From contig JBBRMX010000002.1 in the NCBI GenBank assembly GCA_038230615.1, positions 1 to 43,035 of the forward strand: a stretch of 43,035 bases of DNA, written 5' to 3'. Positions 6,328 to 28,996 of this stretch are shown here, piece after piece. The stretch is from Thermomicrobiales bacterium (GTDB taxonomy: Bacteria; Chloroflexota; Chloroflexia; Thermomicrobiales; JALYUS01). Under the pieces are notes generated by a model, which did not search any database, was not told where the DNA came from, and saw only the letters and a program-made list of their open reading frames with translations. Numbering within the stretch: the stretch's first letter is position 1; each line of letters starts with the position of its first letter. Both the position numbers and the translations under genes were made by a program.

Positions 6328-9078
6328 TCACGGTTTGGTGGTCGGCGGTTTCGCGGCAGGCGGGACGTATACAGGTGTTGGCAAGCCGCCTGCCTGTTGC
6401 GGCGGTGGACCTTTAGTTGGCACCGGCGGTGGCGGCGGATTTGGCGCGCTCGCCGGTGTCAACAAATTCGCCCCACTGGGGGGAGCCGCCTGTGTGACGC
6501 GCACCGTGGTGGATACTGCCTCCGGCGTTGTCTCGGCAGTTGTGGACGGAACTGCAGTTGCGACCCGAACGGCGGTCGGCAGGATGTACGCACGGCTGTT
6601 TTTGGGGCGATATTTGGCATCCACCGCCGTATAGTAGGCATTGAGGCGGGTCGCGCCTGCGCCGGTATATTTGCCGTATTCGGTCTTTTTCGTTTCGAGC
6701 GGACCGCCACCGTTGAACCCTTGTTTGAGCAAGTTCGGGTCTTTCGTGAGATCGGACCACGCCTGAATGAGTTCGATCTGTTCGCGCTCGTCGAGTTCGC
6801 CGCAGGCAAGTTTCGGCTCCTTGCCTTTCACAAACAGGTCTTTCGTCCCGCTGTTGGGGTACGTCGGCTTGTGTCCCGTCGTGGTGCAGGAATACCCGTC
6901 TACGACATTCGCGGGCCGCTCGAATTCCTTCGCGGGTAGGTTGCCGTCTGGCCCGACGAGCAATTGCGGGGCTTTCTCGTATCCGTGGATGAGGCGCATG
7001 AATTCGTTCCAGATCGGTGCAGCGGTCTCAACACCGTCCACGTCTTTCATCGGGTGGTTATCGTTGTTGCCGACCCACATACCCACCGCGATCTGGGTGG
7101 AATACCCGACCGTCCAGCCGTCGCGGAAGTCGTTGGTGGTGCCGGTTTTCGCAGCAACGGGGCGGTCACGCAGGATGAGCGGGCTGGATGCCCCGAAGAT
7201 CGGTGTGCGGGCCTTGTTGTCCGTGAGGATGCTCGTCATGAGGTAGGCATTGCCCCGATCCATCACCTGCGGCCCGACGGGGCGCGTCTTACTATTGTCT
7301 ACCGTCTTACCTGTCTTGGGATCGAGGTAGGGTGTGCCATCGCTTTTTTCGATGCGGATGATCGGGCTTGCCTCAACATACATGCCGCCGTTCGCCATCG
7401 TCGCGTAGGCATTCGTCAGTTGCAGCACCGACGCTTCGCCCCCACCGAGGGCAAGCGAGATACCGAGACCGTACCGCTCCGGCTGCCGGAAACTGTCCGC
7501 CAGTCCCATGTCGTGCGCGAAATCAGTGAAGTTTTGCAAACCCTGCACCTTGCCGTATTTGGAGCCATCTTTAGTGTAATTGAACTCCATTGCCTTGAGT
7601 GCGGGCAGGTTCAGAGACTGTTGCAGCGCATCGCGCACCGCGACCGCACCGTTGTGCAGCAGGTTGAAGTTGTTCGGGGTGTAGCCCTTGTCGGTGCCGT
7701 CGTCCCATGTCTGGTGGTAATCGAGGATGGTATACGACGGGTACCATCCCTTTTCCAACGCGAGAGCATACACAATCGGCTTGATCGAACTCCCCGGCTG
7801 GCGCGGGTTTGTGGCGACATTGTATTCGCCCGCCACATTGAACTTGCCGTCCGGCGTCTTGGTTTGGTCGTAGAAGTCGGTGCTCCCGACCATGCAGAGA
7901 ATCTGCCCGCTCCACGGCACAACGGCGACCAGTGCCCCGTTGGAGACATCGTAGCCCGCTTTGCTCTCGCGGGTGACGCCGGACTTGACGACATCTTCCG
8001 CGAGGCGTTGCACATCGAGGTCAATGGTGGTGTAAATCCGTAAACCGCCACGATAGAGCGCGTCCGGCCCGTAGCGGTCCTCGACGTATTGCCGCACATA
8101 GTTCACAAAATGTGGTGCGCCCGACGGGGTGTCTGCTTTGAATTTGCCGTACTTGCTGGGATCGGCGGATTGCGCGTAGGCATCATCCGCCTGTGGCTGG
8201 GTGATATATCCCTGCGCTACCATCTGGCTGAGCACGTACTGCTGCCGGATGCGGGCGCGGGCAAGATTTGCAGGGCTGACGGTCGGGTCATAGCGCGACG
8301 GCAACTGCGGCAACCCCGCGAGGAACGACGATTGCCAGAGTTTGAGGTCCTTCGCATTGACCCCGAAATAGTTTTTCGCCGCTGCTTGAATACCGTACGA
8401 ACGATTGCCGTAGAAAATTGAGTTGAGATAGAACGTCATCAGGTCTTCTTTGCTGTATTTCTGCGAGAGACTGTATGCGATGAAGACCTGCCGCACTTTG
8501 TCCTCGCGGGTCGGCGTTTCGTATCGCTCTGGGAATGCCTGCTTCACCACCTGCATCGTGATGGTGGATGCGCCGGACGAGCCGTAGGATGTGTCAATAA
8601 AGGTGTTGCGGACGGCGCGACCGAGCGCCTGCGGGTCTATGCCGGGGTTCGTCCAGAATGTTTTGTCCTCGGCGGCGACGGTCGCGTTGATAAGATCGGG
8701 TGAGATACCATTGAGCGGCACCTCGAAACGGTTGCCCGCTTTCGGGTCCGCGATCTCCTGTAACAGGTTGCCGTAGCGGTCGTAGATGCGCGAGGTCTCG
8801 AACTGCGGCAGCGTGTTCGGGTTGAATTCCGGCAGATCGTGCGTGAAATAGGCATACGTCCCCGCCGCGCCCCCGACACCCGCCGCCGCAACCGTCACAA
8901 AAAACAGTAACGCCATCCCGATACCGCCAAAGATCGGCACAATTGGGCTAGCGAACCACCACGCCGGGATACCTTTTTTCGTCTTGCCCCGCACCGCGAA
9001 GGGCGGTGCTTTGCGGCGTGCGCGAGTTTCGCCGATGAATGGACGGCGCGTATGGCGTGGGGGTGGGGGAAGTGCCAT
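6328..9078 (-). CDS. Class A penicillin-binding protein (transglycosylase + transpeptidase, PBP1A family) with Pro-rich C-terminal extension
   Basis: GT51 motifs EDKTFWTNPGIDP and GASTITMQ. Transpeptidase motifs SSIK (SxxK), SLN (SxN) and KTGT. Start uncertain: ATG 9078 (MALPPPP) has an AAGGGA RBS; alternatives are ATG 9105 and GTG 9138 (the ORF-track start). Confidence 0.9.
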   Translation of the reverse strand: MALPPPPRHTRRPFIGETRARRKAPPFAVRGKTKKGIPAWWFASPIVPIFGGIGMALLFFVTVAAAGVGGAAGTYAYFTHDLPEFNPNTLPQFETSRIYDRYGNLLQEIADPKAGNRFEVPLNGISPDLINATVAAEDKTFWTNPGIDPQALGRAVRNTFIDTSYGSSGASTITMQVVKQAFPERYETPTREDKVRQVFIAYSLSQKYSKEDLMTFYLNSIFYGNRSYGIQAAAKNYFGVNAKDLKLWQSSFLAGLPQLPSRYDPTVSPANLARARIRQQYVLSQMVAQGYITQPQADDAYAQSADPSKYGKFKADTPSGAPHFVNYVRQYVEDRYGPDALYRGGLRIYTTIDLDVQRLAEDVVKSGVTRESKAGYDVSNGALVAVVPWSGQILCMVGSTDFYDQTKTPDGKFNVAGEYNVATNPRQPGSSIKPIVYALALEKGWYPSYTILDYHQTWDDGTDKGYTPNNFNLLHNGAVAVRDALQQSLNLPALKAMEFNYTKDGSKYGKVQGLQNFTDFAHDMGLADSFRQPERYGLGISLALGGGEASVLQLTNAYATMANGGMYVEASPIIRIEKSDGTPYLDPKTGKTVDNSKTRPVGPQVMDRGNAYLMTSILTDNKARTPIFGASSPLILRDRPVAAKTGTTNDFRDGWTVGYSTQIAVGMWVGNNDNHPMKDVDGVETAAPIWNEFMRLIHGYEKAPQLLVGPDGNLPAKEFERPANVVDGYSCTTTGHKPTYPNSGTKDLFVKGKEPKLACGELDEREQIELIQAWSDLTKDPNLLKQGFNGGGPLETKKTEYGKYTGAGATRLNAYYTAVDAKYRPKNSRAYILPTAVRVATAVPSTTAETTPEAVSTTVRVTQAAPPSGANLLTPASAPNPPPPPVPTKGPPPQQAGGLPTPVYVPPAAKPPTTKP

Positions 9079-9139
9079 CGTCGCCGGTCCCTTTCTGCTC
9101 GACATCACCTGCACCGTGCCGAGTGTACCACATCTCACA

Positions 9140-14674: not shown

Positions 14675-14880
14675 TTCAGGAGTTCAAAGTGCGGCGTGTC
14701 ATCGCTATTGCCCGCAAAAAGCCGCTGTTGCACCGCCCGCACCGCGCCGACGAGCGGGCGCGAAAAGACCGCACTCAGCAGCACGCCGAGCAGTGTGCCG
14801 ATGCAGACCCCCCATGTAAATGCTGCACGCGGGTCAGATGTAGCAGGGGATGCAGACATCAGGCTTCCTCTCTCGCTCAT
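14671..14880 (-). CDS. Small hypothetical single-pass membrane protein (69 aa)
   Basis: The ATG overlaps the rsfS stop as ATGA (14877-14880). One hydrophobic helix (FTWGVCIGTLLGVLLSAVF). GC3 is high over most of its length. I recognise no homology. Confidence 0.4.
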   Translation of the reverse strand: MSERGSLMSASPATSDPRAAFTWGVCIGTLLGVLLSAVFSRPLVGAVRAVQQRLFAGNSDDTPHFELLN

Positions 14881-15248
14881 TGAATAACGAGAATGCGGGG
14901 AGCGTCCGCCCAGAGGCGGTCGAGCTGGTAAAATTCGCGTTCCTGCTTGCTGAATGCATGAACGACAACATCACCGAAATCGAGCAGCACCCAGCCAGAT
15001 TCGGGCGTACCCTCTTGCCGAATAAGGCGCACACCCTCTTTGGCGGCGCGGTCGCTTACATCGCGTACCACGGCGCGGAGCATTCGCTCGTTGTCTGCGC
15101 TGCTGATGACGAAATAATCGGCGAGCGTCGTGATCGCCGCGATATCGAGCACCAGTACATCGTTGGCGAATGCGTCGGACGAGGCCTGCGCGAGTTCCCG
15201 TGCGAGCACTTGCGGCTCCGGTGCGGTGGCATCGGGCAGTGCGGACAT
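14877..15248 (-). CDS. rsfS: Ribosome silencing factor RsfS
   Basis: The core DVLVLDIAAITTLADYFVISSADNERMLRAVVRDV...WVLLDFGDVVVHAF is typical of RsfS/iojap. Start trimmed to ATG 15248 (MSALPDA) with a GGAAGGAG RBS. Confidence 0.9.
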   Translation of the reverse strand: MSALPDATAPEPQVLARELAQASSDAFANDVLVLDIAAITTLADYFVISSADNERMLRAVVRDVSDRAAKEGVRLIRQEGTPESGWVLLDFGDVVVHAFSKQEREFYQLDRLWADAPRILVIQ

Positions 15249-15364
15249 GCAGTCTCCTTCCATACGGCTATTCATGCACTCATCACCATACCGCAGAGCG
15301 GGGCGGGGCGCAACGTGCCTCTCGTATTGCAAGATCGTTGCGACCACTGTATATGCGGCGGGTG

Positions 15365-15393
15365 TTGTCCGATTGTGTGCGGTCTGCTATACT
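15365..15393 (+). promoter_or_regulatory. Putative promoter for tRNA-Ala (and possibly mutL)
   Basis: TTGTCC (15365-15370), 17 nt, TATACT (15388-15393). A leader hairpin GCGGTGG (15399-15405) / CCACCGC (15420-15426) precedes the tRNA. Confidence 0.5.
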
Positions 15394-15430
15394 CCGCTGC
15401 GGTGGAGATGCAGCATGCGCCACCGCGCGT

Positions 15431-15506
<76 letters not shown>

Positions 15507-15538
15507 CGCACCTTTTCCCTTGTGAAAGCACGTACACA

Positions 15539-17347
15539 ATGGCAATACGCATTTTGCCGCCCGAACTTGTCAGCAAGATCGCGGCGGGCGAGGTCGTTGA
15601 ACGCCCCGCATCCGTTGTTAAAGAACTTGTTGAGAATGCGATGGATGCGGGCGCACGCACGATCCGCGTCGAGATGCGGCAGGGCGGGCGCGACCTTCTC
15701 CGTATCACCGACGACGGCATCGGTATGACGCCGGACGATGTACGCCTCGCGGTGGAGCCGCATGCCACGAGCAAAGTCGCCGCGCTCGCGGATTTACAGA
15801 GCATCACGACGCTCGGTTTCCGGGGCGAAGCATTAGCGAGCATTGCAGCGGTGTCGCGTTTCACCCTCCTTTCTCGCCCCATCGGTGCCGATGCCGCCCT
15901 CGAACTGACGCTGGACGGTGGGCGTGTCGTTACCGAGCGACAGCGCGGCGCACCGGAAGGTACGAGCGTCACGGTGCGCGATCTCTTTCAGTATGTCCCC
16001 GCCCGGCTAAAGTTCCTGCGCTCGGTACAGACCGAGACTGCGTTCATCACGCGGGCGGTGCAGGCATACGCGCTCGGCAGACCGGATATTCGCTTCGAAC
16101 TCGTCAACGATAGCCGCACCATCTTCCGTACAGCGGGCGATGCCGATCTGCGTGCGGCGGCGGGGGCGGTCTTCGGTCATGCGGTTGCGGCGGCGATGTT
16201 GCCGCTGCCGGAGATGGATGCGCCGCCGGAATCGCCTGTCGTCGTATCGGGTCTCGTCTCACATCCGACACACGACCGGGGCGACCGGTATCAGATGTTG
16301 CTGTTCGTCAACGGGCGATGGATACAGCACCGCAGCGCGATGTTCGCGTTGGAGGAGGCATATCACAGCCTCCTGATGGTCGGGCGACATCCGAGCGCGA
16401 TTGTGCGTATCGAAGTGCCGCCGCGCATGGTGGATGTCAATGTCCACCCGACCAAGCAGGAAGTACGCTTTGTCCACGAACGCGAGGTTGTGCGGGCAGT
16501 GGGTGCGGCGACACGGGCGGCGGTGCTCGGCACTACGCAGGAATACGCTGTGCCGCTCGTCCCGTTGCCCTCATCGTTCGCGCAGCCCGCTGCACCTCGT
16601 CCCGCATTTGCGCCGTCGCCGTCGCTTTCCCGACCGGCGGCGACATGGTCGTCTCCCATATCGCCCGCCCCCGTCGTGCCGACGCCACCGACACCGGGCA
16701 GTGGGTGGCGTCGGCTTGATCGCCCTGCGGAGCCGCCCCCGCCGTCCACTGCCACCGCATTTCCGTCGGCGGCATCGCTGCGTGTTGTCGGGCAGGTGGC
16801 AAATACCTATATCATCGCGGAGGGGGCATCGGGCATGTACCTGATTGACCAGCACGCCGCGCACGAGCGGGTGATGCTCGAAAAGATGCGGGCGAAACTG
16901 GCGGTAGGCGATGCCGATGTGCAGCCGCTCCTCGCACCGCTCACATTTGCGCCGCCCGCCGGGTTGCAGGAGACCCTAGAGGCGTGTCGCACCGATCTCA
17001 CACGGCTCGGCTTTCTCGTCGAGCCGTTCGGGGAAGGGGCATGGCTCCTGCGCGGCATCCCCGCGACATTCAATGGTCCGCACGCCCGCGACCCGGTGCG
17101 CGTGCTGGAAGAGACACTGGCGGAACTTGCGGCGGGCGGCACAGGCGGCGATGCACGCGAACGGCTCGCGGCACTGCTCGCGTGCCACAATGCGATTCGG
17201 GCGGGGCAGGTGCTCTCCGACACCGAGATGCGTGCCTTAATCCGCGAACTCGAAGCCGTGGAGACGCCGGGGCATTGCGCCCACGGTCGCCCGACCATGC
17301 TCCACATCAGCCAGTACGATCTCGAACGCGAGTTTTCCCGCCGCTGA
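15539..17347 (+). CDS. mutL: DNA mismatch repair endonuclease MutL
   Basis: N-terminus MAIRILPPELVSKIAAGEVVERPASVVKELVENAMDAG (GHKL ATPase). C-terminal endonuclease motif DQHAAHERVMLE and CAHGRPT. The ORF-track extension upstream to 15170 runs through the tRNA and is rejected. Confidence 0.95.
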   Translation: MAIRILPPELVSKIAAGEVVERPASVVKELVENAMDAGARTIRVEMRQGGRDLLRITDDGIGMTPDDVRLAVEPHATSKVAALADLQSITTLGFRGEALASIAAVSRFTLLSRPIGADAALELTLDGGRVVTERQRGAPEGTSVTVRDLFQYVPARLKFLRSVQTETAFITRAVQAYALGRPDIRFELVNDSRTIFRTAGDADLRAAAGAVFGHAVAAAMLPLPEMDAPPESPVVVSGLVSHPTHDRGDRYQMLLFVNGRWIQHRSAMFALEEAYHSLLMVGRHPSAIVRIEVPPRMVDVNVHPTKQEVRFVHEREVVRAVGAATRAAVLGTTQEYAVPLVPLPSSFAQPAAPRPAFAPSPSLSRPAATWSSPISPAPVVPTPPTPGSGWRRLDRPAEPPPPSTATAFPSAASLRVVGQVANTYIIAEGASGMYLIDQHAAHERVMLEKMRAKLAVGDADVQPLLAPLTFAPPAGLQETLEACRTDLTRLGFLVEPFGEGAWLLRGIPATFNGPHARDPVRVLEETLAELAAGGTGGDARERLAALLACHNAIRAGQVLSDTEMRALIRELEAVETPGHCAHGRPTMLHISQYDLEREFSRR

Positions 17348-17387: not shown

Positions 17388-20300
17388 ATGCCCGTGATGG
17401 AACGCTCGGATGCAGACCTCCATGCGACGCTTGTGACACCGCCGACGGAACAACACCGTGCGGGTGTCGTATCGCGCCGTCTATCCTTCCATTCGGTAGG
17501 GCAAGCGATGCAATCGCCCGCGTTGCTTGTGCCGATTGTGCTGCTCGCACTCATGCTGCGGCTCAACGGGTTGCAGTGGGACGCGGGCTGCGTGCGCGGC
17601 GCGGAACCGACACTCTGCCACCTCCACCCCGACGAGCGCAATATCACCATCGTCATCACAAGCCGCATCCTGCCGGAGTGGCCGCCGCGCTGGGGCGATC
17701 TGCTCGTGCCGGAGCGCAGCCCGCTCAACCCACGTTCCGACGACCCCGCAACAGGTCGCCCGCGTGATTTCGCCTACGGCAGCCTGCCGCTTTTCGTGAC
17801 GAAAGCAATTGCGGGGACGATGCAAGCACTCACCGGCACGCCATGGACGGAATACGACCGCATTGTGCTGGTTGGGCGTGCGCTCTCAGCGGTGCTCGAT
17901 GTTGGGACGTTGCTGCTCGTCTACGCACTGGCACGGCGGTATGCGCGGTGGGCGGGAAATGTCGCTGCTCTCCTCTTTGCGTGCTGCGTCTTGCAGATTC
18001 AACTCGCCCATTTCTTCGCCACCGACACGTGGGTGACATTTTTTGCGACGGCGGCGGTGTGGGCATTCGTCCGGGCGGCGGAGCGGCATCGCGTGCGGGA
18101 TTTTGTGTGTGCCGGTGCGCTGGTCGGGCTGGCGGTGGCGAGCAAAGCATCGGTGGCGTTCTTGGCGTTTCCTGCATTCGCCGCACTCGTCGTCCATGCT
18201 GTTACGCCCGATCCGCGAGCGAACGAGGACGCCGACGAATCACGCCCGCTCGTGCGATTGTTCTCGATGGGGCTGGCGACCGCGTGGGCGGCGGTGCTGG
18301 CGTTTGCCGTCGCGGAGCCATACGCATTGCTCCGGCTCGGCACGTACATGGAAGCCATCGGCACCCAAGCACGGCTCGTGAAGGGCGATCTTGATTACCC
18401 GTACACACGGCAGTATGTCGGCACCGCGCCGTATTATCATCTCAAGAACCTCGTGCTGTGGGGAATGGGACCTGCGCTCGGTCTGCTGGCGTTGGCGGGT
18501 TTGGTGTGGGGCATCGTCCGCGTGGCGAGAACGCGGCGCACGGTAGACTGGGTGCTCTTGGCGTGGGTGGTGCCGTATCTCGCGTATACTGTGCCGCAGT
18601 CGGTGAAGTTCATGCGCTACCTTCAGCCCGTCTACCCTGTGCTGATCGTACTCGGTGTCGCGCTCATCGTGGATGCGACGCGGACGCGGGTTCGCATCGG
18701 GCAAAACTGGCTCTGGATGCCCCGCCCCGTTGCATTCGCGTCGCTGGCACTCGTGGCACTCTGCACCGCGCTCTGGGCGGGGGCATTCTCGACGATCTAC
18801 GAGCAGACGCACAGCCGTGTTGCCGGCAGCGAATGGTTCGAGGCGAACATCCCGGCGGGATCGGTCGTTGCTACCGAAGTATGGGACGATGGCTTTCCGC
18901 AGGCCGTCTCCGCGACACCGAACGCCTACGATTGCGTGCGCCTGAACGCGCAACGCCCGAGTACCTGCTCCGGCTTCGATCTCTACCCCGATGAGGGGAC
19001 GGGCGAGACACGTCTGCGCTACCTCACCACGCTGATGAATCAGGCGGACTACATCGTCATGTCGTCCAACACCGTCTGGGGTTCGATCCCGCACGCACCG
19101 TGGCGGTATCCGGTGACCATCCGCTTTTATGATCTGCTCTTTACCGGGCGGCTCGGCTACACGACGGTCTACGATGGCACTGTCTCGCCGCATCTCGGCG
19201 CGTGGGCGATCAACGATCACGGCGCGGATCAGTCGTTTTCGTACTACGATCACCCGCAGGTGCGCGTCTTCAAGCGGACGCAGCCGCTCACCGCCGCGCA
19301 ATTGCGCCCGCTCTTTGCGGATGTGCTCGCGCAGCCCGCCGTACCGCAACGCGACCCCCCAAAACGCGCCTCGTTGCTCACGCAGGACGTGAACACGCTG
19401 CCGCCCGTGAATGATCGGGCATGGGGGGGGGTATGGGCGCGGAATGGCGGGGTGGCGGTCGGGCTGTATCTACTGCTGTTCGAACTGTTCGGGCTGATCG
19501 GCTGGCCCGTCGCGGCACGAATCTTTCGCCGCTTCCCGGATCGCGGGTGGGGGATGGCGAAGCCGCTCGGCTGGTTGGCGTGCGCGTATGTCGTCTGGCT
19601 CGGCGCAAGCCTGCACATCGTCCCGTTTACATTGCCCGTCGTGGCGGCAGTGGTGGCGGGGGGGATTGTCATCGCGGCGGTGGTTGGGTGGTGGAACCGT
19701 GCGCTGCTATGGGCGCACCTGCGGACAGAGTGGCGCACAATGCTCGGCAGTGAACTAACCGCGCTGGCGGGGTTCGCGCTGTTTCTGCTCTTTCGGTTGC
19801 GGAACCCCGACTTATGGCAGACCTACTGGGGCGGCGAGAAGCCTTTTGAGTTGGCGCAACTGAACGGCATCCTGCGCTCGGCTTCCTTCCCGCCGTACGA
19901 CCCGTGGCTGGCGGGCGGCACGATCAACTACTACTACTATGGCGCGTACCTCCACGCGTTTGTAATGAAACTGACCGGCATCGCGCCGGAGGTGGCGTTC
20001 AATGTGGCGGTACCTGCCACGATGATGCTGGTGTGGGGTGCGGCATTCTCGGTCGGCTCCGCGCTTTGGGTGCTGGTGCGTCGCCGGTCGCCGGAGCGCG
20101 GCAGCGATGCGGTGACGGGCGGCATTTGCGCTGCGATTGCGGTCGCGTTGCTCGGCAACCTCAATGCGGTGGGGCAAGTCGTTGCGCTTCTACGGCGCGG
20201 GGTCGGAGGGCGCGAGATCGGCACGCAGTTCGATTTCTGGCAGAGCACGCGGCTTATCCCCGGTACGATCAACGAGTTTCCATTTTTCAGCGGGCTATGG

Positions 20301-21794
20301 GCGGATTTGCACGCGCATGTCGTCGCGTTGCCTTTCGCGCTCGTCTGCGTGGGTATTGCGCTGGCAATCGCACTGCACTGGCAGCAGCCGCACCCGTTCG
20401 GGCCGCGTGTTCCCGCAAAGGTGCTGCTGCGTGGCGTGCCGTGGGTGAGCGTGGCGGTTGCTGCCCTCGTTGTGGGGGCGTTGTACCCGATCAATGCGTG
20501 GGACTTCCCCACGGCAATTGCCCTCATCGGTATCGGCATCGTGGTCGGATTGCGGCAGGCGGTGGCGCGGTGGCCCGTCGCGGTGCTTGGTGCGGCGGGC
20601 GGCGCACTGGGAATCGCGGCAGCGGGGTATCTACTCTTTTTGCCCTTCCATCGCAACTTCTATGCGGTCTTTGGCTCGTTCGCGGCGGTCACCGTGCCGT
20701 CGCCGCCGGGGGAATTTGGGGTCATCTTCGGGTTCTTTCTCGTCGTGATCGCCTGCGGCATCGCGGCGGCAAGCCCCGTGCGCGGCTGGAATTGGATCGT
20801 CATGCAGGATACATGGGGTGTCGGGGTACTGGTCGGCACGGTGGCACTCTGGCTGGTGTCACTTGTGACGCAACGCTGGGTACTGGTATGTACGGTGCCA
20901 CTGCTCGGTCTCTTGGCACTCTTGTGGCTGCGGAACGAGCGGCAACCGGCACGGCGGATGCTGTTCGGCCTCGGCATCGTTGGGGTCGGGCTGGTCTCAG
21001 TCGTGGAAGTCGTCTTCCTCGCGGACGATCTCATCGGCGGCGATTACGAGCGCATGAACACGGTCTTCAAGTTCCATTTTCAGGCGTGGACCCTGTTCGC
21101 GCTGGCGGCGGTGGGGTTTCTGTCGCTCGTCACCGACCGCTGGCGGCTGATTGACCCGGTCTTCCGGGCGATCTTTGCGGCGTTCGTCGGGATCGGAGTG
21201 CTGGCGTGCCTCGTGTATCCGGTCTTCGGCACACAATCGCGCCTCGCGCAGCGGATGCTGCCGGTACCTGCCGATGCGGGTCTGAACGGCAATGCGTGGA
21301 TGCAGACGGGCGTCGTGCTCGCGGACCAATGGAACAACACGGGGAGCGGCGAACCTATCGCGTTCCGCGATGATCTCGCCTTGATTGACTGGATGAATGC
21401 AAACCTGCGCGGCACGCCAGTAATCGCGGAAGCGGCAATCGGGCCGTACCGTGGCAACGGCTCACGCATTTCGAGCGCGACAGGCTTTCCCGCCGTTATC
21501 GGGTGGGAGCGACACGAGGAGCAGCAGCGCGGCGTGGACGGCTTGCCGGAGCGCAACCGCGATGTACGGGTGATCTACACCGCCACCGATGACGGACAGG
21601 TGCAGACGGTGCTCGACCGATACGCAGTACGCTATATCGTCGTCGGGGAGGTGGAGCGGCGTATTCGTGTCGCCCCAAACCAGACCTACGCATCGGCGGC
21701 GGGCTTGGAAACGCTGCAACGGATGGAGCGCGAAGGGATGCTACGCGTGGCGTGGCAGCAGAACGGGACCATTCTCTACGAGGTGATGCGGTGA
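17388..21794 (+). CDS. Giant polytopic membrane protein: GT-C-like (PMT_2/ArnT-like) N-terminal module fused to one Chlor_Arch_YYY / DUF2298-type module
   Basis: Highly hydrophobic, 1468-aa ORF. The N-terminal part has a loop motif LHPDER after the first helix and a soluble domain with ADYIVMSSNTVWGSIP...YDHPQVRVFKR. The second part carries GGEKPFE...AGGTINYYYYGAY. Start uncertain: ATG 17388 (ORF track) or ATG 17508 (MQSPALLVPIVLL). A TAGAAT -10-like box at 17381-17386 favours the downstream start. Confidence 0.85.
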   Translation: MPVMERSDADLHATLVTPPTEQHRAGVVSRRLSFHSVGQAMQSPALLVPIVLLALMLRLNGLQWDAGCVRGAEPTLCHLHPDERNITIVITSRILPEWPPRWGDLLVPERSPLNPRSDDPATGRPRDFAYGSLPLFVTKAIAGTMQALTGTPWTEYDRIVLVGRALSAVLDVGTLLLVYALARRYARWAGNVAALLFACCVLQIQLAHFFATDTWVTFFATAAVWAFVRAAERHRVRDFVCAGALVGLAVASKASVAFLAFPAFAALVVHAVTPDPRANEDADESRPLVRLFSMGLATAWAAVLAFAVAEPYALLRLGTYMEAIGTQARLVKGDLDYPYTRQYVGTAPYYHLKNLVLWGMGPALGLLALAGLVWGIVRVARTRRTVDWVLLAWVVPYLAYTVPQSVKFMRYLQPVYPVLIVLGVALIVDATRTRVRIGQNWLWMPRPVAFASLALVALCTALWAGAFSTIYEQTHSRVAGSEWFEANIPAGSVVATEVWDDGFPQAVSATPNAYDCVRLNAQRPSTCSGFDLYPDEGTGETRLRYLTTLMNQADYIVMSSNTVWGSIPHAPWRYPVTIRFYDLLFTGRLGYTTVYDGTVSPHLGAWAINDHGADQSFSYYDHPQVRVFKRTQPLTAAQLRPLFADVLAQPAVPQRDPPKRASLLTQDVNTLPPVNDRAWGGVWARNGGVAVGLYLLLFELFGLIGWPVAARIFRRFPDRGWGMAKPLGWLACAYVVWLGASLHIVPFTLPVVAAVVAGGIVIAAVVGWWNRALLWAHLRTEWRTMLGSELTALAGFALFLLFRLRNPDLWQTYWGGEKPFELAQLNGILRSASFPPYDPWLAGGTINYYYYGAYLHAFVMKLTGIAPEVAFNVAVPATMMLVWGAAFSVGSALWVLVRRRSPERGSDAVTGGICAAIAVALLGNLNAVGQVVALLRRGVGGREIGTQFDFWQSTRLIPGTINEFPFFSGLWADLHAHVVALPFALVCVGIALAIALHWQQPHPFGPRVPAKVLLRGVPWVSVAVAALVVGALYPINAWDFPTAIALIGIGIVVGLRQAVARWPVAVLGAAGGALGIAAAGYLLFLPFHRNFYAVFGSFAAVTVPSPPGEFGVIFGFFLVVIACGIAAASPVRGWNWIVMQDTWGVGVLVGTVALWLVSLVTQRWVLVCTVPLLGLLALLWLRNERQPARRMLFGLGIVGVGLVSVVEVVFLADDLIGGDYERMNTVFKFHFQAWTLFALAAVGFLSLVTDRWRLIDPVFRAIFAAFVGIGVLACLVYPVFGTQSRLAQRMLPVPADAGLNGNAWMQTGVVLADQWNNTGSGEPIAFRDDLALIDWMNANLRGTPVIAEAAIGPYRGNGSRISSATGFPAVIGWERHEEQQRGVDGLPERNRDVRVIYTATDDGQVQTVLDRYAVRYIVVGEVERRIRVAPNQTYASAAGLETLQRMEREGMLRVAWQQNGTILYEVMR

Positions 21795-24223
21795 TCGTGG
21801 AGAGTGTCCGGTGGGCGGCGACGTGGGCGGGCGTGCTCGTGCTTCTTTCGGTGGTCGTTTTCCCGCTGGCGTATCGCCTTCTGCCGGGATTGCCGGGGCG
21901 AGGTGTGGCGTTCTGCCCGCCGCTCGGTCTGCTTGTCGTGTCGTATCTATCGTGGCTGGCGGCATCGGTACATCTTGTGCCGTTCGGTGCGCCGTCGCTC
22001 TGGGGCGCGGTGGCAGTCGTTGCGGCATTGTCGGTGTTGTCGGAAGTACAGACGCGCGGCGCGGCGATAGGGTGGTTGCGGCATAATGGGCGGGTCGCGC
22101 TCTGGTTCTTGCTCGTGTTCGCGGCGGCATTTGTGCTGTTCGCGTGGGTGCGCGGCTTCCGCCCCGAAGTACGAGCGACCGAGAAACCGATGGAGATCGG
22201 CTTTCTGGCGAGCACGATGCGTGCTGTCTGGATGCCGCCAACCGATCAATGGTTCGCTGGCGGGACGATCAACTACTACTATTTCGGCTATGTGCAGGCG
22301 GCAGCGATGGCGCATCTCGCCGGGGTAAATGCGGGCATCGCGTTTAATCTGACGAACATCATGCTCTTTGCGATGGCATTCACCGCTGCGTGCGGCATCG
22401 CATACGATCTTCTCGCACGCGGTCGTCGGGAGCGGGGCGCACGGAGCAGGTCGCCGCTCCTCCCATCGCTGGTGGGCGGATTGTTGCTCGTGGTAGCGGG
22501 CAATGCATTCGCGTTGCTGCGGTTGCTGCAAGATCCCGCAACGACGATTGGGCAGTATTTTTACGAGGGTGTCGGCTGGAATAGCACGCGGGTCATCAAG
22601 GATGTCTTCGGACCGACGAACATCTTTCCGCAGATCACCGAATTTCCCGCATTCAGTTTCATTCTCGGTGATAATCACCCGCATGTGCTGGCTTTACCGA
22701 CGGTGCTACTCACAGTGGCGGTCGCATTCGGGTGGTGGTGGAAGCCGCTTGGCGGCTGGCGCGACGGTGTACCGCGCCTCGCATTGACTGCCTTGGTGAT
22801 CGGCGTACTGTACCCGCTTAATGCGTGGGATGTGCCGACCTTTGGGCTGCTCGTGGTGCTGGCGATGCTGCTGCGCCGTCCTGCCCTCTGGCAGCGCACG
22901 CTGGGCGCAGTGGCGGGTGTGGCGGCGGGTGCGTATCTGCTCTTTTTGCCCTTTCATCGCGGGTACATCAGCCCGCTCGGTGGCTCATACGGTGGGGAAC
23001 CTGCTGCGATCGCCCCGCTCACAGCGGTGCCGATACTCGGCAAACTCATCCGCACGATTGGGCTGGTTGTCTGGCCGCATACCGAACTGGGGCAATTTCT
23101 CGTCGTCTTCGTCCTGCCATTTGTGGTGTGCGGATGTCTCGTCGGGCGCGGCATCGCAGGTCGGGGCGTGCCGCTCTCGCCGCAGGCGCGGCAACGGTTA
23201 TTGGTTGCGGGCGTAGTTGTCGCGCTACTCGCCATCATGACGCGCACGCCGATGCTGTTTCCGACCGGGTTGCTCGTCGGTGGCGCAATCGTCGCGCTCG
23301 TGCGTCCGGTAACGCGCCCCAATCGTGCGGCGGTCGCGTCGCCATGGGCAGTGTGGACGGGGACGGATCGCGCTGCTACCGCGCTTGTGCTGCTTGGTGC
23401 GGCATTGCCGGTGTCGTGCGAGTTCGTCTATCTGCGCGATGCCTTCGATAATCGCCTGAACACGATGTTTAAGCTCGATTTCCAGTCGTGGGCGCTCCTG
23501 ATGATTGCAGGGGCATATGGTGTCCTCACACTGCTCAGTACAGTGCAGCGGGCAGCAACGGCGTGGCAGCCCGATCTGCGACGCTTCCGGTTGGCGGCGA
23601 CGGGCGCGGCGGTCGCCGTCTTCGTGGCATTTGCGGTGGCATATCCCCTTCTGACGGCATACGCACGCACCGGGCATTGGGGGCAGACGGGCGAGTTTGG
23701 CGGCCCTCCGGAGGGCTGGCAAGGGCTGGACGGCTATGCCTACGCTATCGCATCGAATCCCGACGAATACGCCGCCCTCCGCTGGCTCGAAGCGAACGCG
23801 GGTACGAACGACGCGATTGTCGAGGGCGTCGGCAATTCCTACGGCGAGACGGGCGGCTGGTTCGATGACCACTATTCCGCGCTCTCCGGCGTGCCGACGG
23901 TGCTTGGGTGGTACTACCATGAAGTGCAATGGCGCGGTGGTGATGACCGCGTGCGCCAGATTACATTACCGGAACGCCGCAACGATGTGAGCCGCCTCTA
24001 CACCACTACCAACATGACCGAGGCACGCGCCCTGCTCCAGAAATATGGCGTACGATGGGTCATTGTGGGGAATGCGGAAAAACTGATGTACGGCGATTGT
24101 CAGGCGATCTCGCAGTGCGATGCGAAGCCCGCGCCGGGGCTGGCGAAATTCCGGCAGATGCTCGTGCCGATGTACGACGCGGGCGGCGTGACGATCTACC
24201 GCGTGCCGCCGGACGGGGGATGA
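21791..24223 (+). CDS. Chlor_Arch_YYY / DUF2298-type polytopic membrane protein (single-module paralogue)
   Basis: Motif-by-motif paralogy with the C-terminal half of the preceding protein (TEKPMEIGF...AGGTINYYYFGY, NHPHVLALP, YPLNAWDVPT, FLPFHRGY, GWYYHEVQWRGG). Proposed GTG start at 21791 overlaps the upstream TGA as GTGA. The ORF-track ATG at 21752 lies inside the upstream gene. Confidence 0.85.
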   Translation: MIVESVRWAATWAGVLVLLSVVVFPLAYRLLPGLPGRGVAFCPPLGLLVVSYLSWLAASVHLVPFGAPSLWGAVAVVAALSVLSEVQTRGAAIGWLRHNGRVALWFLLVFAAAFVLFAWVRGFRPEVRATEKPMEIGFLASTMRAVWMPPTDQWFAGGTINYYYFGYVQAAAMAHLAGVNAGIAFNLTNIMLFAMAFTAACGIAYDLLARGRRERGARSRSPLLPSLVGGLLLVVAGNAFALLRLLQDPATTIGQYFYEGVGWNSTRVIKDVFGPTNIFPQITEFPAFSFILGDNHPHVLALPTVLLTVAVAFGWWWKPLGGWRDGVPRLALTALVIGVLYPLNAWDVPTFGLLVVLAMLLRRPALWQRTLGAVAGVAAGAYLLFLPFHRGYISPLGGSYGGEPAAIAPLTAVPILGKLIRTIGLVVWPHTELGQFLVVFVLPFVVCGCLVGRGIAGRGVPLSPQARQRLLVAGVVVALLAIMTRTPMLFPTGLLVGGAIVALVRPVTRPNRAAVASPWAVWTGTDRAATALVLLGAALPVSCEFVYLRDAFDNRLNTMFKLDFQSWALLMIAGAYGVLTLLSTVQRAATAWQPDLRRFRLAATGAAVAVFVAFAVAYPLLTAYARTGHWGQTGEFGGPPEGWQGLDGYAYAIASNPDEYAALRWLEANAGTNDAIVEGVGNSYGETGGWFDDHYSALSGVPTVLGWYYHEVQWRGGDDRVRQITLPERRNDVSRLYTTTNMTEARALLQKYGVRWVIVGNAEKLMYGDCQAISQCDAKPAPGLAKFRQMLVPMYDAGGVTIYRVPPDGG

Positions 24224-25300: not shown

Positions 25301-27079
25301 ATGAGGAGTATGCGAACAATCATGCGGCTGATGGGGCATCTCCGACCGTACAAGCGGCAGGCGATCCTTTCCTACGGAATGCTCATCCTCGGTATCGGGA
25401 TGCAGATTGCAGTACCGCTGCTCATCCAGTACACGATCAACAAAGGCATCAATTCCGGCAACGAAACGGTGCTGGCGATTGCCTGCATCTCGATTGTCGT
25501 CATTGTGCTGTTGCAAGCGACATTCGGCTACACGCGCTCGTATTGGCTCCAGTATCTCGCAGAGCGCGTGGCGTACGATGTGCGAAACGAGATGTATCAG
25601 CATCTCCAGCGGCTCTCGTTCTCGTATTACGACCGGGCGCAAACAGGGCAGTTAATCTCCCGCGCCACGGAAGATGTCAACAACATGCGCCGCTTTTTCC
25701 TGTTCGGGTTGCGGTTGCTTGTCCAGTCTTCCTTGATGCTCATCGGTATCACGATTGTGATGCTCAATCTCAACTGGCGGCTAGCACTGCTCTCGCTCTC
25801 GACGATGCCCATCCTGATCGTGGTGACGGTCTGGTTCGGGGTGAAGATTCGCCCGCTCTTTCTCTCGGTGCAAACCCAGTTTGGCAATGCGATGACGGTG
25901 CTGCAAGAAAACCTCGCGGGTGTGCGCGTCGTGCGGGCGTTCGCGCGGGAGCCGTACGAAATCCGCAAATTTGCGGGGGAAGCAGATGCGGTCTACAACA
26001 AGCAGATGGATGCCGCCCGCAGTTGGACGCTCGTGTTCCCGCTCATGTCGCTGATTGCGGGGCTTGGCACGGCAATTGTTATCGCATACGGCGGTTCGGG
26101 TGTCATTCGCGGTGATCTCCAACTCGGTACTCTGCTCGCGTTCAATCTCTATCTGACGATGCTCGCGGAGCCGGTACGGAATATCGGCTGGGTGGTCAAT
26201 AATGTTGCCCGCGCACAGGCGTCTGCCGAGCGTGTCTACGAGATACTGGACAAGACTCCGGAGATCGTCACGCCGCCGGATGCCTTCAAGCCCACCGTCA
26301 TGGAGGGGCATGTGCGCCTCGAAAATGCCGAATTTGCCTATCCGGACGGCGGGCGGCCCGTGCTGCGCGGCGTGAGTATTGACGCGCGCCCCGGCGGTGT
26401 CGTCGGGCTGATTGGTTCCACAGGTTCGGGAAAATCGAGCCTGATCCAACTACTACCGCGTTTCTACGATGTGACGGGCGGTGGGATTACCGTAGACGGC
26501 GTGGATGTACGCCAGTGGGATTTGCCGACACTGCGAAAGAATGTCGGGCTGGTGCTGCAAGAGACCTTTCTGTTTTCGGTCTCGGTGCGCGAAAACATCG
26601 CCTATGGCAGACCCGATGCGACCGACGCGGAGGTCGAAGCCGCCGCCCGCGCCGCGCAAGCGCACGAATTCATTCTCAATCTGCCGCAGGGCTACGCAAC
26701 GGAACTGGGCGAACGCGGCGTGAATATCTCCGGCGGGCAGAAGCAGCGCATCGCGATTGCCCGTGCCCTCCTGCTCGATCCGCGCATTCTTGTGCTAGAC
26801 GACGCCACGAGTGCCGTAGATATGGAGACCGAGTACGAGATTCAGCAGGCGTTAGATATTCTCATGCAGGGGCGCACGACCTTCATCATCGCGCAACGGT
26901 TGAGCAGCGTGCGCCACGCGGAGCAAATCTGTGTGCTGGACGAAGGCAAGATCGTCGAGCGCGGCACGCATGACGAATTGCTCGCGCAAAATGGCGCGTA
27001 CCGCCGCCTGTTCGATATGCAAGTGCGGGCGCAGGATGCCGCCTTCTTTGTGGATGAGATCACGGCGGACGGGGACTGA
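25301..27079 (+). CDS. ABC exporter, fused permease/ATPase half-transporter carrying the degenerate-site residues
   Basis: Six-helix TMD plus NBD. Walker A GSTGSGKSS and signature ISGGQ. Walker B is LVLDDA, with Asp (26801-26803) in place of the catalytic Glu. The H-loop is IAQRLS, with Gln (26894-26896) in place of His. Confidence 0.9.
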   Translation: MRSMRTIMRLMGHLRPYKRQAILSYGMLILGIGMQIAVPLLIQYTINKGINSGNETVLAIACISIVVIVLLQATFGYTRSYWLQYLAERVAYDVRNEMYQHLQRLSFSYYDRAQTGQLISRATEDVNNMRRFFLFGLRLLVQSSLMLIGITIVMLNLNWRLALLSLSTMPILIVVTVWFGVKIRPLFLSVQTQFGNAMTVLQENLAGVRVVRAFAREPYEIRKFAGEADAVYNKQMDAARSWTLVFPLMSLIAGLGTAIVIAYGGSGVIRGDLQLGTLLAFNLYLTMLAEPVRNIGWVVNNVARAQASAERVYEILDKTPEIVTPPDAFKPTVMEGHVRLENAEFAYPDGGRPVLRGVSIDARPGGVVGLIGSTGSGKSSLIQLLPRFYDVTGGGITVDGVDVRQWDLPTLRKNVGLVLQETFLFSVSVRENIAYGRPDATDAEVEAAARAAQAHEFILNLPQGYATELGERGVNISGGQKQRIAIARALLLDPRILVLDDATSAVDMETEYEIQQALDILMQGRTTFIIAQRLSSVRHAEQICVLDEGKIVERGTHDELLAQNGAYRRLFDMQVRAQDAAFFVDEITADGD

Positions 27080-27190
27080 GCAGTTCGGCAACCGCTCATC
27101 GTGTGTGAAGCGCAGGTATCTTGATCTGCCGTGCATCGTATCCGCTACCACTTTGTAACCACCACGGACATTTCTGGAAGGGTATGCACG

Positions 27191-28996
27191 ATGATGAACT
27201 TTCAAGGCGACCCGGACGATCTGCTCGGCAAGGCGTTCGACAAGAATGTCGCCGTGCGGCTCGCGGGATACCTCAAGCCGTACACCGGGCAATTGCTCAC
27301 CGCGACCGTGACGATGCTATTCGCCACCGTTGGTGATCTCGCGCTGCCGTGGTTGTTCGGTCTGGCGGTGGATAAAGGCATCGGGCAGTCCGATTATCAC
27401 GGGTTGTTCGTCATCGTCGCGCTCTTCGTCGGTGCGCTCGCGGGTACCTTCGTGACGCGCTGGATACAATTCTGGCTGATGGCGAAGTTCGGCAACCGCA
27501 TCATCTACGATCTCCGCGCCGCGCTTTTCGACCATATGCAGGTGATCGGGCTGAAGACATACGACCGCATGGGTGTAGGGCGGATGATGTCGCGCATCCA
27601 GAACGATGTCACGGTGCTGGAAGATTTCCTCACCACGGGGCTGATCGGCGCATTCTCCGATATTCTCGTCCTCATCGGCATCGTCATCGCCATGCTCGTG
27701 CTCAATGTGCAACTCGCCCTGATCTCGTTCACCGTGCTCCCCGTGATGGTGATCGGCATGGCGATCTGGCGGAGGCGGGCAGTGCTGTCCTACCGCGCGA
27801 CGCGCATCACAATGAGCCGCGTGACGGGCAATTTCGCGGAGAATATCAGCGGGTTGCGTGTCGTGCAGTCGTTTGAGCGCGAGGGGCAGAACCAAGAGAA
27901 ATTTCGCCAGATCAACGGCGAAAATCTCGACGCCAATGCATACGCGGCGCGGCTCTCGGCGTTTCTCTGGCCCGGTGTGGATTTGCTCAGCGCAGTCGCG
28001 ACGGCAATTGTGCTCTTCTTCGGCGGTCGGTTGGTGATCCACAACGGCGGGCTGAGTGTCGGCGAGTTGTTCGCCTTTCTCGGTTACGTCACCCGCTTCT
28101 TCGGCCCGATCCGCACGCTGTCCGACCGCTACAACACGTTGCAAGCCTCCACGGTGGCGGGCGAGCGCATCTTCGAGTTGCTCGATCAGCCCGCCGACAT
28201 TCTCGACAAGCCCATCGCGAAACCTCTCCCTCCCGTCGTCGGCGCGATCACGCTCGATCACGTCACGTTCGGCTACGCGACAACGCCCGTGCTGCGCGAC
28301 ATTGATGTGCAGATCGCCCCGGGGCAGACCGTCGCATTCGTCGGGGCAACCGGGGCGGGGAAATCCAGCCTCGTCAATCTCGTGCCGCGCTTCTATGATG
28401 TCTGGGAGGGGAGCGTTTCAATAGACGGGCACGATGTCCGCGATGTGACGCTGGAATCGCTCCGCAGCCAGATCAGCGTTGTGCTGCAAGACCCTTTCCT
28501 GTTTAGCGGTTCCATCGCGGACAATATTCGCTACGGGCGGCTCGACGCCACCGACGACGAGATAGAGGCAGCGGCACGGGCAGTCGGGGCGCATGTCTTC
28601 ATCACGCGGCTGCCGGAGGGGTATCACACCGAAGTGCGCGAGCGCGGCGGTCTCCTCAGTGTCGGGCAACGACAATTGATTGCCTTTGCCCGTGCCGTGC
28701 TTGCGGACCGCCCAATGGTCATTATGGACGAAGCGACCAGCAGCGTGGACACTCAGACCGAGCAGATCATTCAGGAGGCGTTGCGGACAGTGCTGGCGGG
28801 GCGCACCGCGCTCGTCATCGCGCACCGCCTCTCCACGATTGTGAACGCAGACCTGATCGTCGTCCTCGATCACGGGCGAATCATCGAGCGTGGTACGCAC
28901 GCCCAATTGATGACCCTGCGCGGCGCATATTATCGCCTACACAGTATGCAGTTCCGCGCCCAGCATGGCATCGTCGAGGATACTGCCGCAGACTGA
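27191..28996 (+). CDS. ABC exporter, fused permease/ATPase half-transporter (consensus catalytic residues, non-canonical signature)
   Basis: Start trimmed to ATG 27191 (MMNFQGDP) with GGAAGGG upstream. Walker A GATGAGKSS, Walker B VIMDEATS, H-loop IAHRLS. The signature is LSVGQ (28655-28669) rather than LSGGQ. Confidence 0.9.
   Translation: MMNFQGDPDDLLGKAFDKNVAVRLAGYLKPYTGQLLTATVTMLFATVGDLALPWLFGLAVDKGIGQSDYHGLFVIVALFVGALAGTFVTRWIQFWLMAKFGNRIIYDLRAALFDHMQVIGLKTYDRMGVGRMMSRIQNDVTVLEDFLTTGLIGAFSDILVLIGIVIAMLVLNVQLALISFTVLPVMVIGMAIWRRRAVLSYRATRITMSRVTGNFAENISGLRVVQSFEREGQNQEKFRQINGENLDANAYAARLSAFLWPGVDLLSAVATAIVLFFGGRLVIHNGGLSVGELFAFLGYVTRFFGPIRTLSDRYNTLQASTVAGERIFELLDQPADILDKPIAKPLPPVVGAITLDHVTFGYATTPVLRDIDVQIAPGQTVAFVGATGAGKSSLVNLVPRFYDVWEGSVSIDGHDVRDVTLESLRSQISVVLQDPFLFSGSIADNIRYGRLDATDDEIEAAARAVGAHVFITRLPEGYHTEVRERGGLLSVGQRQLIAFARAVLADRPMVIMDEATSSVDTQTEQIIQEALRTVLAGRTALVIAHRLSTIVNADLIVVLDHGRIIERGTHAQLMTLRGAYYRLHSMQFRAQHGIVEDTAAD

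Follow-up and report, generated by a model that had tools for sequence, protein, structure and literature searches.

Glycosyltransferases of the C structural class (GT-C) build the mycobacterial arabinan, carry out lipid A modifications and make N- and O-glycoproteins, and some of these enzymes are drug targets. The protein mannosyltransferases (PMTs) carry a DE motif at the start of loop 1, the PMT_2 profile is matched by ArnT-like enzymes and by many uncharacterised bacterial GT-C enzymes as well, AglB and PglB have 13 transmembrane (TM) helices, and PIG-U is a subunit of glycosylphosphatidylinositol transamidase. The chemistry of the Chloroflexota envelope is poorly known. Here we describe two adjacent open reading frames, ORF1 and ORF2, of a Thermomicrobiales bacterium (Chloroflexota; assembly GCA_038230615.1, contig JBBRMX010000002.1, positions 1 to 43,035 of the forward strand; this whole stretch of 43,035 nucleotides is referred to as the window), which encode a PMT_2-like module and two modules of the YYY/DUF2298 family, all 3 with predicted GT-C folds. 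The gene pair is probably a core cell-envelope glycosylation system of Chloroflexota, and we assign a probability of about 0.65 to the reading that its 3 modules are catalytically competent and glycosylate an envelope acceptor outside the membrane in successive or complementary steps.

The closest functional analogy is with the mycobacterial EmbA, EmbB and EmbC proteins (GT53) together with the Aft proteins, which are encoded by clustered GT-C genes, act on one polymer outside the membrane and include EmbA-EmbB dimers; for the N-terminal module of ORF1, the closest analogy is with the PMT and ArnT enzymes. In AftA, extra N-terminal helices precede the GT-C core, the catalytic Asp128 lies on the first long two-helix loop, an Arg binds the carrier phosphate, and the core of the alpha/beta C-terminal domain is shared with PglB, AglB and ArnT (PMC10265970).

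The gene pair is laid out as follows; coordinates are positions in the window, the ORFs were taken from an ORF list with translations, and the ORF2 start is that of a gene call.

17388-21794, plus strand: ORF1, 1468 amino acids (aa), a GT39/PMT_2-like predicted GT-C module plus a "fused-type" YYY/DUF2298 module (ORF list, PMT_2, DUF2298 and TIGR03662)
21791-24223, plus strand: ORF2, 810 aa, a standalone-type YYY/DUF2298 protein (TIGR03662, PF10060 and AlphaFold2 [AF2] model m3c48a5cbbe9b)
21780-21794, plus strand: coupling junction, with GAGGTGA at 21780-21786, the ORF2 GTG at 21791-21793 and the ORF1 TGA at 21792-21794 (read from the sequence)

ORF1 is the longest ORF in the window. The longest open form of ORF2 extends from 21752 to 24223 (823 aa), and the gene-caller product (P0001) is the 810-aa protein that begins with the GTG at 21791. 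The junction sequence is GAG GTG ATG CGG TGA, in which the ORF2 start and the ORF1 stop share a four-base GTGA overlap, and the Shine-Dalgarno-like GAGGTGA lies 5-11 nt to the 5' side of the ORF2 GTG. This arrangement is best explained if ORF1 and ORF2 form the core of a translationally coupled operon. A promoter and terminator scan for the limits of the operon gave counts near the shuffled expectation and found no intergenic terminator. The residues A, V, L, I, F, M, W and G account for ~58-61% of both proteins. We also observed a strongly negative AT skew (-0.18 to -0.25) and a positive GC skew at window positions 18000-24000, exactly across the 2 giant genes. The T-rich second codon positions of genes for very hydrophobic proteins probably account for this, rather than replication.

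ORF1 and ORF2 are each full-length and typical representatives of a family that is already catalogued, and in this respect the genes of the window are ordinary. TIGR03662 (Chlor_Arch_YYY) gave 488.1 bits with ORF1 and 454.7 bits with ORF2 (cutoff 300.25; the matches span positions 6-726 of the 727 in the model), and PF10060 (DUF2298) gave 350.9 and 322 bits, respectively, against a curated cutoff of 27.8. The YYYxG motif, which is invariant in our alignments, is present as Y848-Y849-Y850-Y-G in ORF1 and as Y162-Y163-Y164-F-G in ORF2. In a BLASTP comparison, the C-terminal 818 residues of ORF1 and ORF2 were 29% identical over 786 aligned positions (E 4e-55), and this alignment identifies ORF2 as a paralog of the YYY half of ORF1. 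The first-pass annotation of this DNA, made from its letters and translations, had described 2 giant hydrophobic proteins of 1468 and about 810 aa that resemble each other motif by motif, and had proposed their assignment to TIGR03662/DUF2298: the sizes agree with ORF1 and P0001, all of the motif pairs that it quoted are present in the 2 translations, the likeness is far beyond chance, and the proposed family is correct, with both proteins far above the curated cutoffs. Clustered at 50% identity (E ≤ 1e-3), the DUF2298 family falls into 10,542 clusters, and it occurs in the genomes of at least 590 reference species. It includes giant relatives of 2400-2744 aa in which PMT or PMT_2 is joined to 2 copies of DUF2298 and some of which end in TPR repeats (e.g. 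P0241, P0245 and P0272); we take this to be the second architecture noted in the TIGRFAMs description. In the literature searched, DUF2298 appeared only incidentally, in 2 papers, the names TIGR03662, PF10060 and Chlor_Arch_YYY were not found, and we found no paper that gives DUF2298/TIGR03662 a fold class or function; matches to "YYY domain" concerned the unrelated Y_Y_Y domain.

The N-terminal module of ORF1 is of a different kind. PF13231 (PMT_2) matched residues 164-270 with 58.4 bits against a cutoff of 26.1, and the homologs of this module carry a GT39 annotation. PF02366 (PMT) had no match in ORF1 at E ≤ 0.01 and was found in most of the N-module homologs. From its predicted structure and the family matches, ORF1 can be divided as follows.

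17517-18803, plus strand: TM part of the GT39/PMT_2-like module, ORF1 residues about 44-472 (AF2 model and Foldseek)
18804-19337, plus strand: soluble alpha/beta domain of the GT39-like module, predicted to be extracytoplasmic, residues about 473-650 (secondary structure and predicted local distance difference test [pLDDT])
19338-19460, plus strand: low-confidence linker between the ORF1 modules, residues about 651-691 (pLDDT <50 at 655-683)
19461-21785, plus strand: fused-type YYY/DUF2298 module with C-terminal soluble domain, residues 692-1466 (TIGR03662 and paralogy to ORF2)

We used AF2 to model ORF2 from an alignment of 74 homologs and the first 700 residues of ORF1 (the N-module) from 79 homologs, and compared the models with the PDB by means of Foldseek, counting matches at E ≤ 1e-3. 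The ORF2 model had a pLDDT of 93.6 and a predicted template modelling score of 0.95, and all of its 7 matches were GT-C enzymes with probability 1.00, namely DPY19 (a C-mannosyltransferase; 5e-6), AglB (1e-5) and AftA (2e-5), with ArnT the next membrane enzyme; membrane proteins that are not GT-C (unrelated transporters) had probabilities below 0.15. The N-module model (m75e2d0c04937; pLDDT 85.5) gave 29 matches, every one of them a GT-C enzyme, among them AglB (6e-9), ArnT (3e-6), STT3, ALG12, ALG9, DPY19, PglB, Pmt4 and EmbA. The modelled ORF2 is paralogous over its full length to the YYY half of ORF1, so the pair is predicted to hold 3 modules of GT-C fold. The N-module shares with PMT (GT39; Pmt1-Pmt2) and ArnT (GT83) the PMT_2 match and the predicted fold, and differs from them in its fusion to a YYY module and in that its top fold matches are AglB and STT3, not PMT. 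The earlier proposals of a GT-C core and of a lipid-carrier-type GT-C enzyme at the N-terminus of ORF1 thus agree with both the profile and the models, and the likeness to oligosaccharyltransferase that had been suggested holds at the level of fold only, because the signature WWDYG is absent.

This last point bears on the question of whether the YYY modules could be oligosaccharyltransferase-like, moving a glycan assembled beforehand, en bloc, off its polyprenyl-diphosphate carrier and onto surface proteins in the manner of AglB, PglB and STT3 (GT66). These enzymes are among the top fold matches of both modelled modules; when the 3 extra N-terminal helices of ORF2 are removed, 13 TM helices are left, as many as AglB and PglB have; the TPR repeats at the ends of some giant relatives are able to bind proteins; and the C-terminal domain of ORF2, compared separately, resembles the C-terminal globular domain of AglB, although at E 0.02-0.16 and target TM-scores of 0.43-0.58 (best for 3vu0, E 0.02 and 0.58) the match is not statistically significant. 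However, AglB had the lowest target TM-scores among the GT-C matches of the ORF2 model (0.29-0.30, as compared to 0.50-0.54 for the highest, AftA 8if8), and a regular-expression search of ORF1 and ORF2 found no WWD, W[WYF]D[YWF]G or DK-type motif, the only occurrence being an irrelevant DPPK in the linker. The STT3 profile PF02516 likewise had no match in the 2 proteins, nor in 48 family members even at E ≤ 1. Because the WWDYG and DK motifs and the STT3 match are absent, we do not place the pair among the oligosaccharyltransferases, and en bloc transfer of this kind appears to us to be quite improbable. A further resemblance in the same C-terminal domain, between the motif "LLxKYGVxYVxVGxxER" (window 23990-24130, ORF2 residues about 740-780) and the "ILKDYGISWVVLGHSERR" segment of triosephosphate isomerases, was judged to be due to chance (E 0.14-1).

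We examined the arrangement of these genes in the best 80 of at least 590 matching genome stretches. The loci were retrieved with a standalone-type profile, and their six-frame ORFs were scanned with hidden Markov models made from the YYY and GT39-module alignments. All were from Chloroflexota metagenome-assembled genomes (MAGs) except for one labelled Binatia, and 9 were uninformative for pairing. A GT39-YYY fusion was located directly upstream of, and on the same strand as, a standalone YYY gene in 41 loci, and in 9 further loci the upstream YYY gene was cut by a contig end or by frameshifts, so that 50 of the 71 informative loci, from Thermomicrobiales, Anaerolineales and other groups, are paired; the predicted co-occurrence of the 2 genes was thereby borne out. 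Wherever enough of the upstream gene was visible (41/41), it was a GT39-YYY fusion. The best match of a fused copy in another locus was again a fused copy in 43/43 cases, and that of a standalone copy a standalone copy in 79/81, and by this pattern the 2 types are old paralog clades. Both clades keep essentially all of the invariant polar residues. Clade-specific differences include W714 of ORF2, in place of which 100% of the fused copies have Q, and D550, which is specific to the standalone clade and is G in 79% of fused copies. The putative active-site residues are kept in both clades, and neither copy looks like a decayed pseudoenzyme.

In some loci the GT39-YYY fusion is split over 2 or 3 frames (L001/L002 5527-10008, L066 4583-9835 and L038 3984-9003; several of these MAGs are from the MFD series). 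In L001, mutL is also fragmented, and the split genes are probably assembly frameshifts, not real gene fission.

The ORF2 model contains 16 TM helices, with the N-terminus predicted to be outside. With this orientation, the 68 residues of the short inner loops include 12 K+R but not a single D or E, as compared to 12 K+R and 12 D+E among the 172 residues of the short outer loops, and arginine clusters are also found at the inner ends of helices. An N-out start is required of the YYY module because in ORF1 it follows the soluble, presumably extracytoplasmic, domain of the GT39 module. With this topology, all of the invariant polar residues are predicted to be located in outer loops or at the outer ends of helices, so that the acidic and histidine motifs fall on the extracytoplasmic side, as had been anticipated, and not on the cytoplasmic one. 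In ORF2 the outward-facing invariants are E131, K132, D152, Y162-164, R267, E284, D294-x-H296-x-H298 and N344-x-W346-D347; further outward-facing residues are D550, R555-x-N557-T-x-F-K561, E678, W707, H710, R729 and E763. The segments concerned, and the candidate catalytic motif of the N-module, are as follows.

22160-22330, plus strand: first long outer loop of ORF2, residues 124-180, with E131, K132, D152, W154 and Y162-Y163-Y164-x-G invariant
22553-22684, plus strand: second long outer loop of ORF2, residues 255-298, with R267, E284-F-P-x-F-S and D294-x-H296-x-H298 invariant
23426-23473, plus strand: outer loop and helix start of ORF2, residues 546-561, with D550 and R555-x-N557-T558-x-F560-K561 (conservation)
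23669-24220, plus strand: C-terminal soluble alpha/beta domain of ORF2, predicted to be extracytoplasmic, residues 627-810 (model)
17625-17636, plus strand: H80-P81-D82-E83 motif of ORF1, candidate catalytic Asp-Glu of the GT39-like module

In the model, the first of these loops has 57 residues with 2 helices (132-144 and 165-177), and by analogy with the catalytic loop of AftA it is a candidate catalytic loop. The second, whose R267, E284-F-P-x-F-S and D294-x-H296-x-H298 are kept in both paralog clades, may form a metal or phosphate site. Residues E678, G706-W707, H710, R729 and E763 are invariant in the C-terminal domain. The YYY module of ORF1 keeps E817, D838, Y848-850, R955, E963, D973-H975-H977, N1036-W1038-D1039, R1222-N1224-K1228, E1348 and H1376. 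The HPDE motif of the N-module marks the beginning of the first loop helix that follows TM1 (helix 81-93, after TM helix 44-59, in the model) and is at least 90% conserved in 79 homologs and 100% in 35 fused proteins; the N-module resembles the PMTs in that its invariant Asp-Glu pair stands where loop 1 begins.

When the YYY module is compared with AftA (GT85), the model has the same general plan: extra TM helices precede the GT-C core, the first long loop predicted to be outside is formed by 2 helices and carries an acidic residue that is invariant, and the C-terminal domain is soluble and of the alpha/beta type. The extra helices are 2 in AftA and 3, with the N-out start, in the YYY module. 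There is no detectable sequence similarity between the YYY proteins and AftA or the Emb proteins, and the YYY modules have motifs of their own (YYYxG, D-x-H-x-H, N-x-W-D and R-x-N-T-x-F-K), come from a different phylum and are covalently fused to a second GT-C module.

Retention of these residues also bears on whether the YYY modules are GT-C-like but non-catalytic, serving the fused GT39 enzyme as a scaffold, as a subunit that binds the acceptor or as one that handles the lipid carrier, much as PIG-U is part of glycosylphosphatidylinositol transamidase. Proteins of GT-C fold that lack transferase activity do exist, PIG-U being one that appeared among the fold matches of the N-module, and in the literature searched we found no demonstration of the activity of a DUF2298 protein. 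Yet more than 20 invariant outward polar residues (E, D, H, R, K and N) are kept in both clades, which is a long-retained pattern typical of an active site and not of a scaffold, and solitary YYY genes occur without an adjacent GT39 gene. We regard a non-catalytic role as the least probable of the alternatives considered here.

The mechanism that we favor may be stated as follows. We infer that the YYY modules, like the GT39-like module, are glycosyltransferases. The donor of each would be a sugar linked to polyprenyl phosphate in the membrane, and its acceptor would be at the outer face of the cytoplasmic membrane. Catalysis would depend on an invariant acidic residue where the first long outer loop begins; the candidates are D82/E83 for the GT39-like module and, for the YYY modules, E817 or E131 (together with D838 or D152). 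The active sites would be covered by the soluble C-terminal domains, an arrangement known from AftA, ArnT, PglB and AglB. Because the modules are inherited as a unit and their conserved residues are kept, they most likely carry out successive or complementary steps on one envelope glycoconjugate, which might be a wall polysaccharide or a surface glycoprotein, possibly as a complex like EmbA-EmbB or Pmt1-Pmt2, for which the GTGA overlap and the conserved adjacency of the genes are indirect support. The pair may be a polymerase, as the first-pass annotation had suggested among other roles, or a decorating or protein-glycosylating system.

A number of our observations weigh against this mechanism. 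The target TM-scores of the ORF2 model against solved GT-C structures are modest (0.29-0.54), and that E131 is equivalent to the known catalytic Asp is something we infer. At the sequence level, DUF2298 is isolated, with no detectable link to characterised GT-C families: sequence searches of the PDB, including phmmer, found no solved structure as a sequence relative of ORF1 or ORF2, a profile hmmsearch of PDB sequences gave only chance matches, 48 members scanned against Pfam showed no GT-C family even at E ≤ 1, and in an hhalign comparison the YYY and GT39-module alignments overlapped only trivially. The neighbours of the pair in the window are housekeeping genes, and no polyprenyl-phosphate glycosyltransferase or flippase gene recurred in 8 Pfam-annotated neighbourhoods. 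A standalone-type gene was solitary in 21 of 71 loci (with at least 4.5 kb visible upstream), so this copy can occur with no partner beside it, and we did not find fused-type and standalone-type copies combined in one protein.

The last 2 observations are also what would be expected if the 3 active GT-C modules worked independently of each other on different acceptors, their adjacency and fusion reflecting ancient tandem duplication and co-expression. Consistent with this, the fusion and the standalone gene are 0.4-4.9 kb apart in some loci, and in L043 (901-5339, a Ktedonobacteraceae MAG) a GT39-like gene is separate from, and directly upstream of, the YYY gene, so that the fusion has unfused counterparts. 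However, the pairing persists in several Chloroflexota orders despite divergence to about 29% identity, GT39 and YYY are covalently joined in every locus where the upstream gene is visible (41/41), and the ORF1 stop and ORF2 start overlap in the window. Independent action is in our view unlikely. In the aggregate, each of the 3 alternatives (independent enzymes, oligosaccharyltransferase-like transfer and non-catalytic YYY modules) is less likely than successive or complementary glycosylation because of the conserved pairing and the invariant outward-facing polar residues.

Two related arguments were tried and rejected. That solitary copies are of the standalone type does not count as independent evidence, the loci having been retrieved with a standalone-type profile. 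Nor do triple fusions of roughly 2000 aa in L007, L035 and L046 provide a Rosetta-stone link between the fused and standalone types: both YYY copies in these proteins are fused-type, and a standalone-type gene is still present downstream.

A more far-reaching proposal is that the YYY proteins are a large new GT-C family, with the signature E...D...YYY, D-x-H-x-H, N-x-W-D and R-x-N-T-x-F-K in more than 10,000 clusters at 50% identity, and that the pair is an obligate heteromeric assembly line with 3 active sites for a phylum-typical envelope glycan or surface glycoprotein. We offer this only tentatively, and incline somewhat against it; if true, it would have direct consequences for the long debate over what the Chloroflexota cell envelope is made of. 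What the present analysis adds to the existing catalogue entries is the fold assignment with its set of outward motifs, the phylum-wide operon of fusion plus paralog, and the two-clade structure. The predicted GT-C fold with its outward-facing invariant site, the fusion to a GT39-like enzyme and the 2 clades turn DUF2298 into a testable enzymatic hypothesis with named residues, and the value of the work lies in this family-level inference, not in peculiarities of the locus in the window.

Upstream of the pair, the window contains genes for chorismate synthase (aroC) and a Clp_N protein, and mutL; downstream are fmt, 2 MsbA-like ABC exporters and then genes of the pentose-phosphate pathway and glycolysis. 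The fmt product is a genuine Met-tRNA formyltransferase equivalog and is not ArnA-like. The ABC exporters (25301-28996, plus strand) are half-transporters of 592 and 621 aa that did not reach equivalog cutoffs. A functional link of the pair to mutL, fmt and the ABC exporters was considered and rejected: the order mutL, pair, fmt, ABC, ABC is common only to the closest relatives (L001-L004), beyond which the synteny is absent or rearranged, and it therefore represents inherited synteny and not functional linkage.

In other loci, extra PMT_2 genes often flank the pair, and another example of PMT_2 genes beside the pair is listed in PMC8756737. Four loci from Anaerolineae-like genomes (L084 4882-18120, L087 4794-19785, L088 1-14306 and L090 2478-14581) have an extended run of GT-C genes in the order PMT_2 (~760 aa), fusion, YYY and a protein of ~590 aa, sometimes followed by a PMT_2-NHL gene; the run in L088 is similar. 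The ~590-aa protein had a weak PMT_2 match in 3 of these loci and no Pfam match in L088, and the PMT_2-NHL-repeat protein (1250-1300 aa) is present in 2 of the 4. The flanking PMT_2, ~590-aa and PMT_2-NHL genes of the extended run are absent from the window.

Other features of the window may be mentioned briefly. In the mutL ORF (15170-17347, plus strand), matches to MutL models begin at residue 124-126 of 725, and either the true start is downstream or the protein has an N-terminal extension; a 196-aa ORF (14850-15440) that overlaps it has no Pfam match. A 793-aa protein at 33404-35785 (minus strand) has a weak Transketolase_N match (2.9e-13), with its C-terminal domain below the curated cutoff. 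Finally, as background for any hypothesis on envelope glycans, a class A penicillin-binding protein of 936 aa, with transglycosylase and transpeptidase domains, is encoded at 6328-9138 (minus strand), and its presence indicates that the organism makes peptidoglycan.

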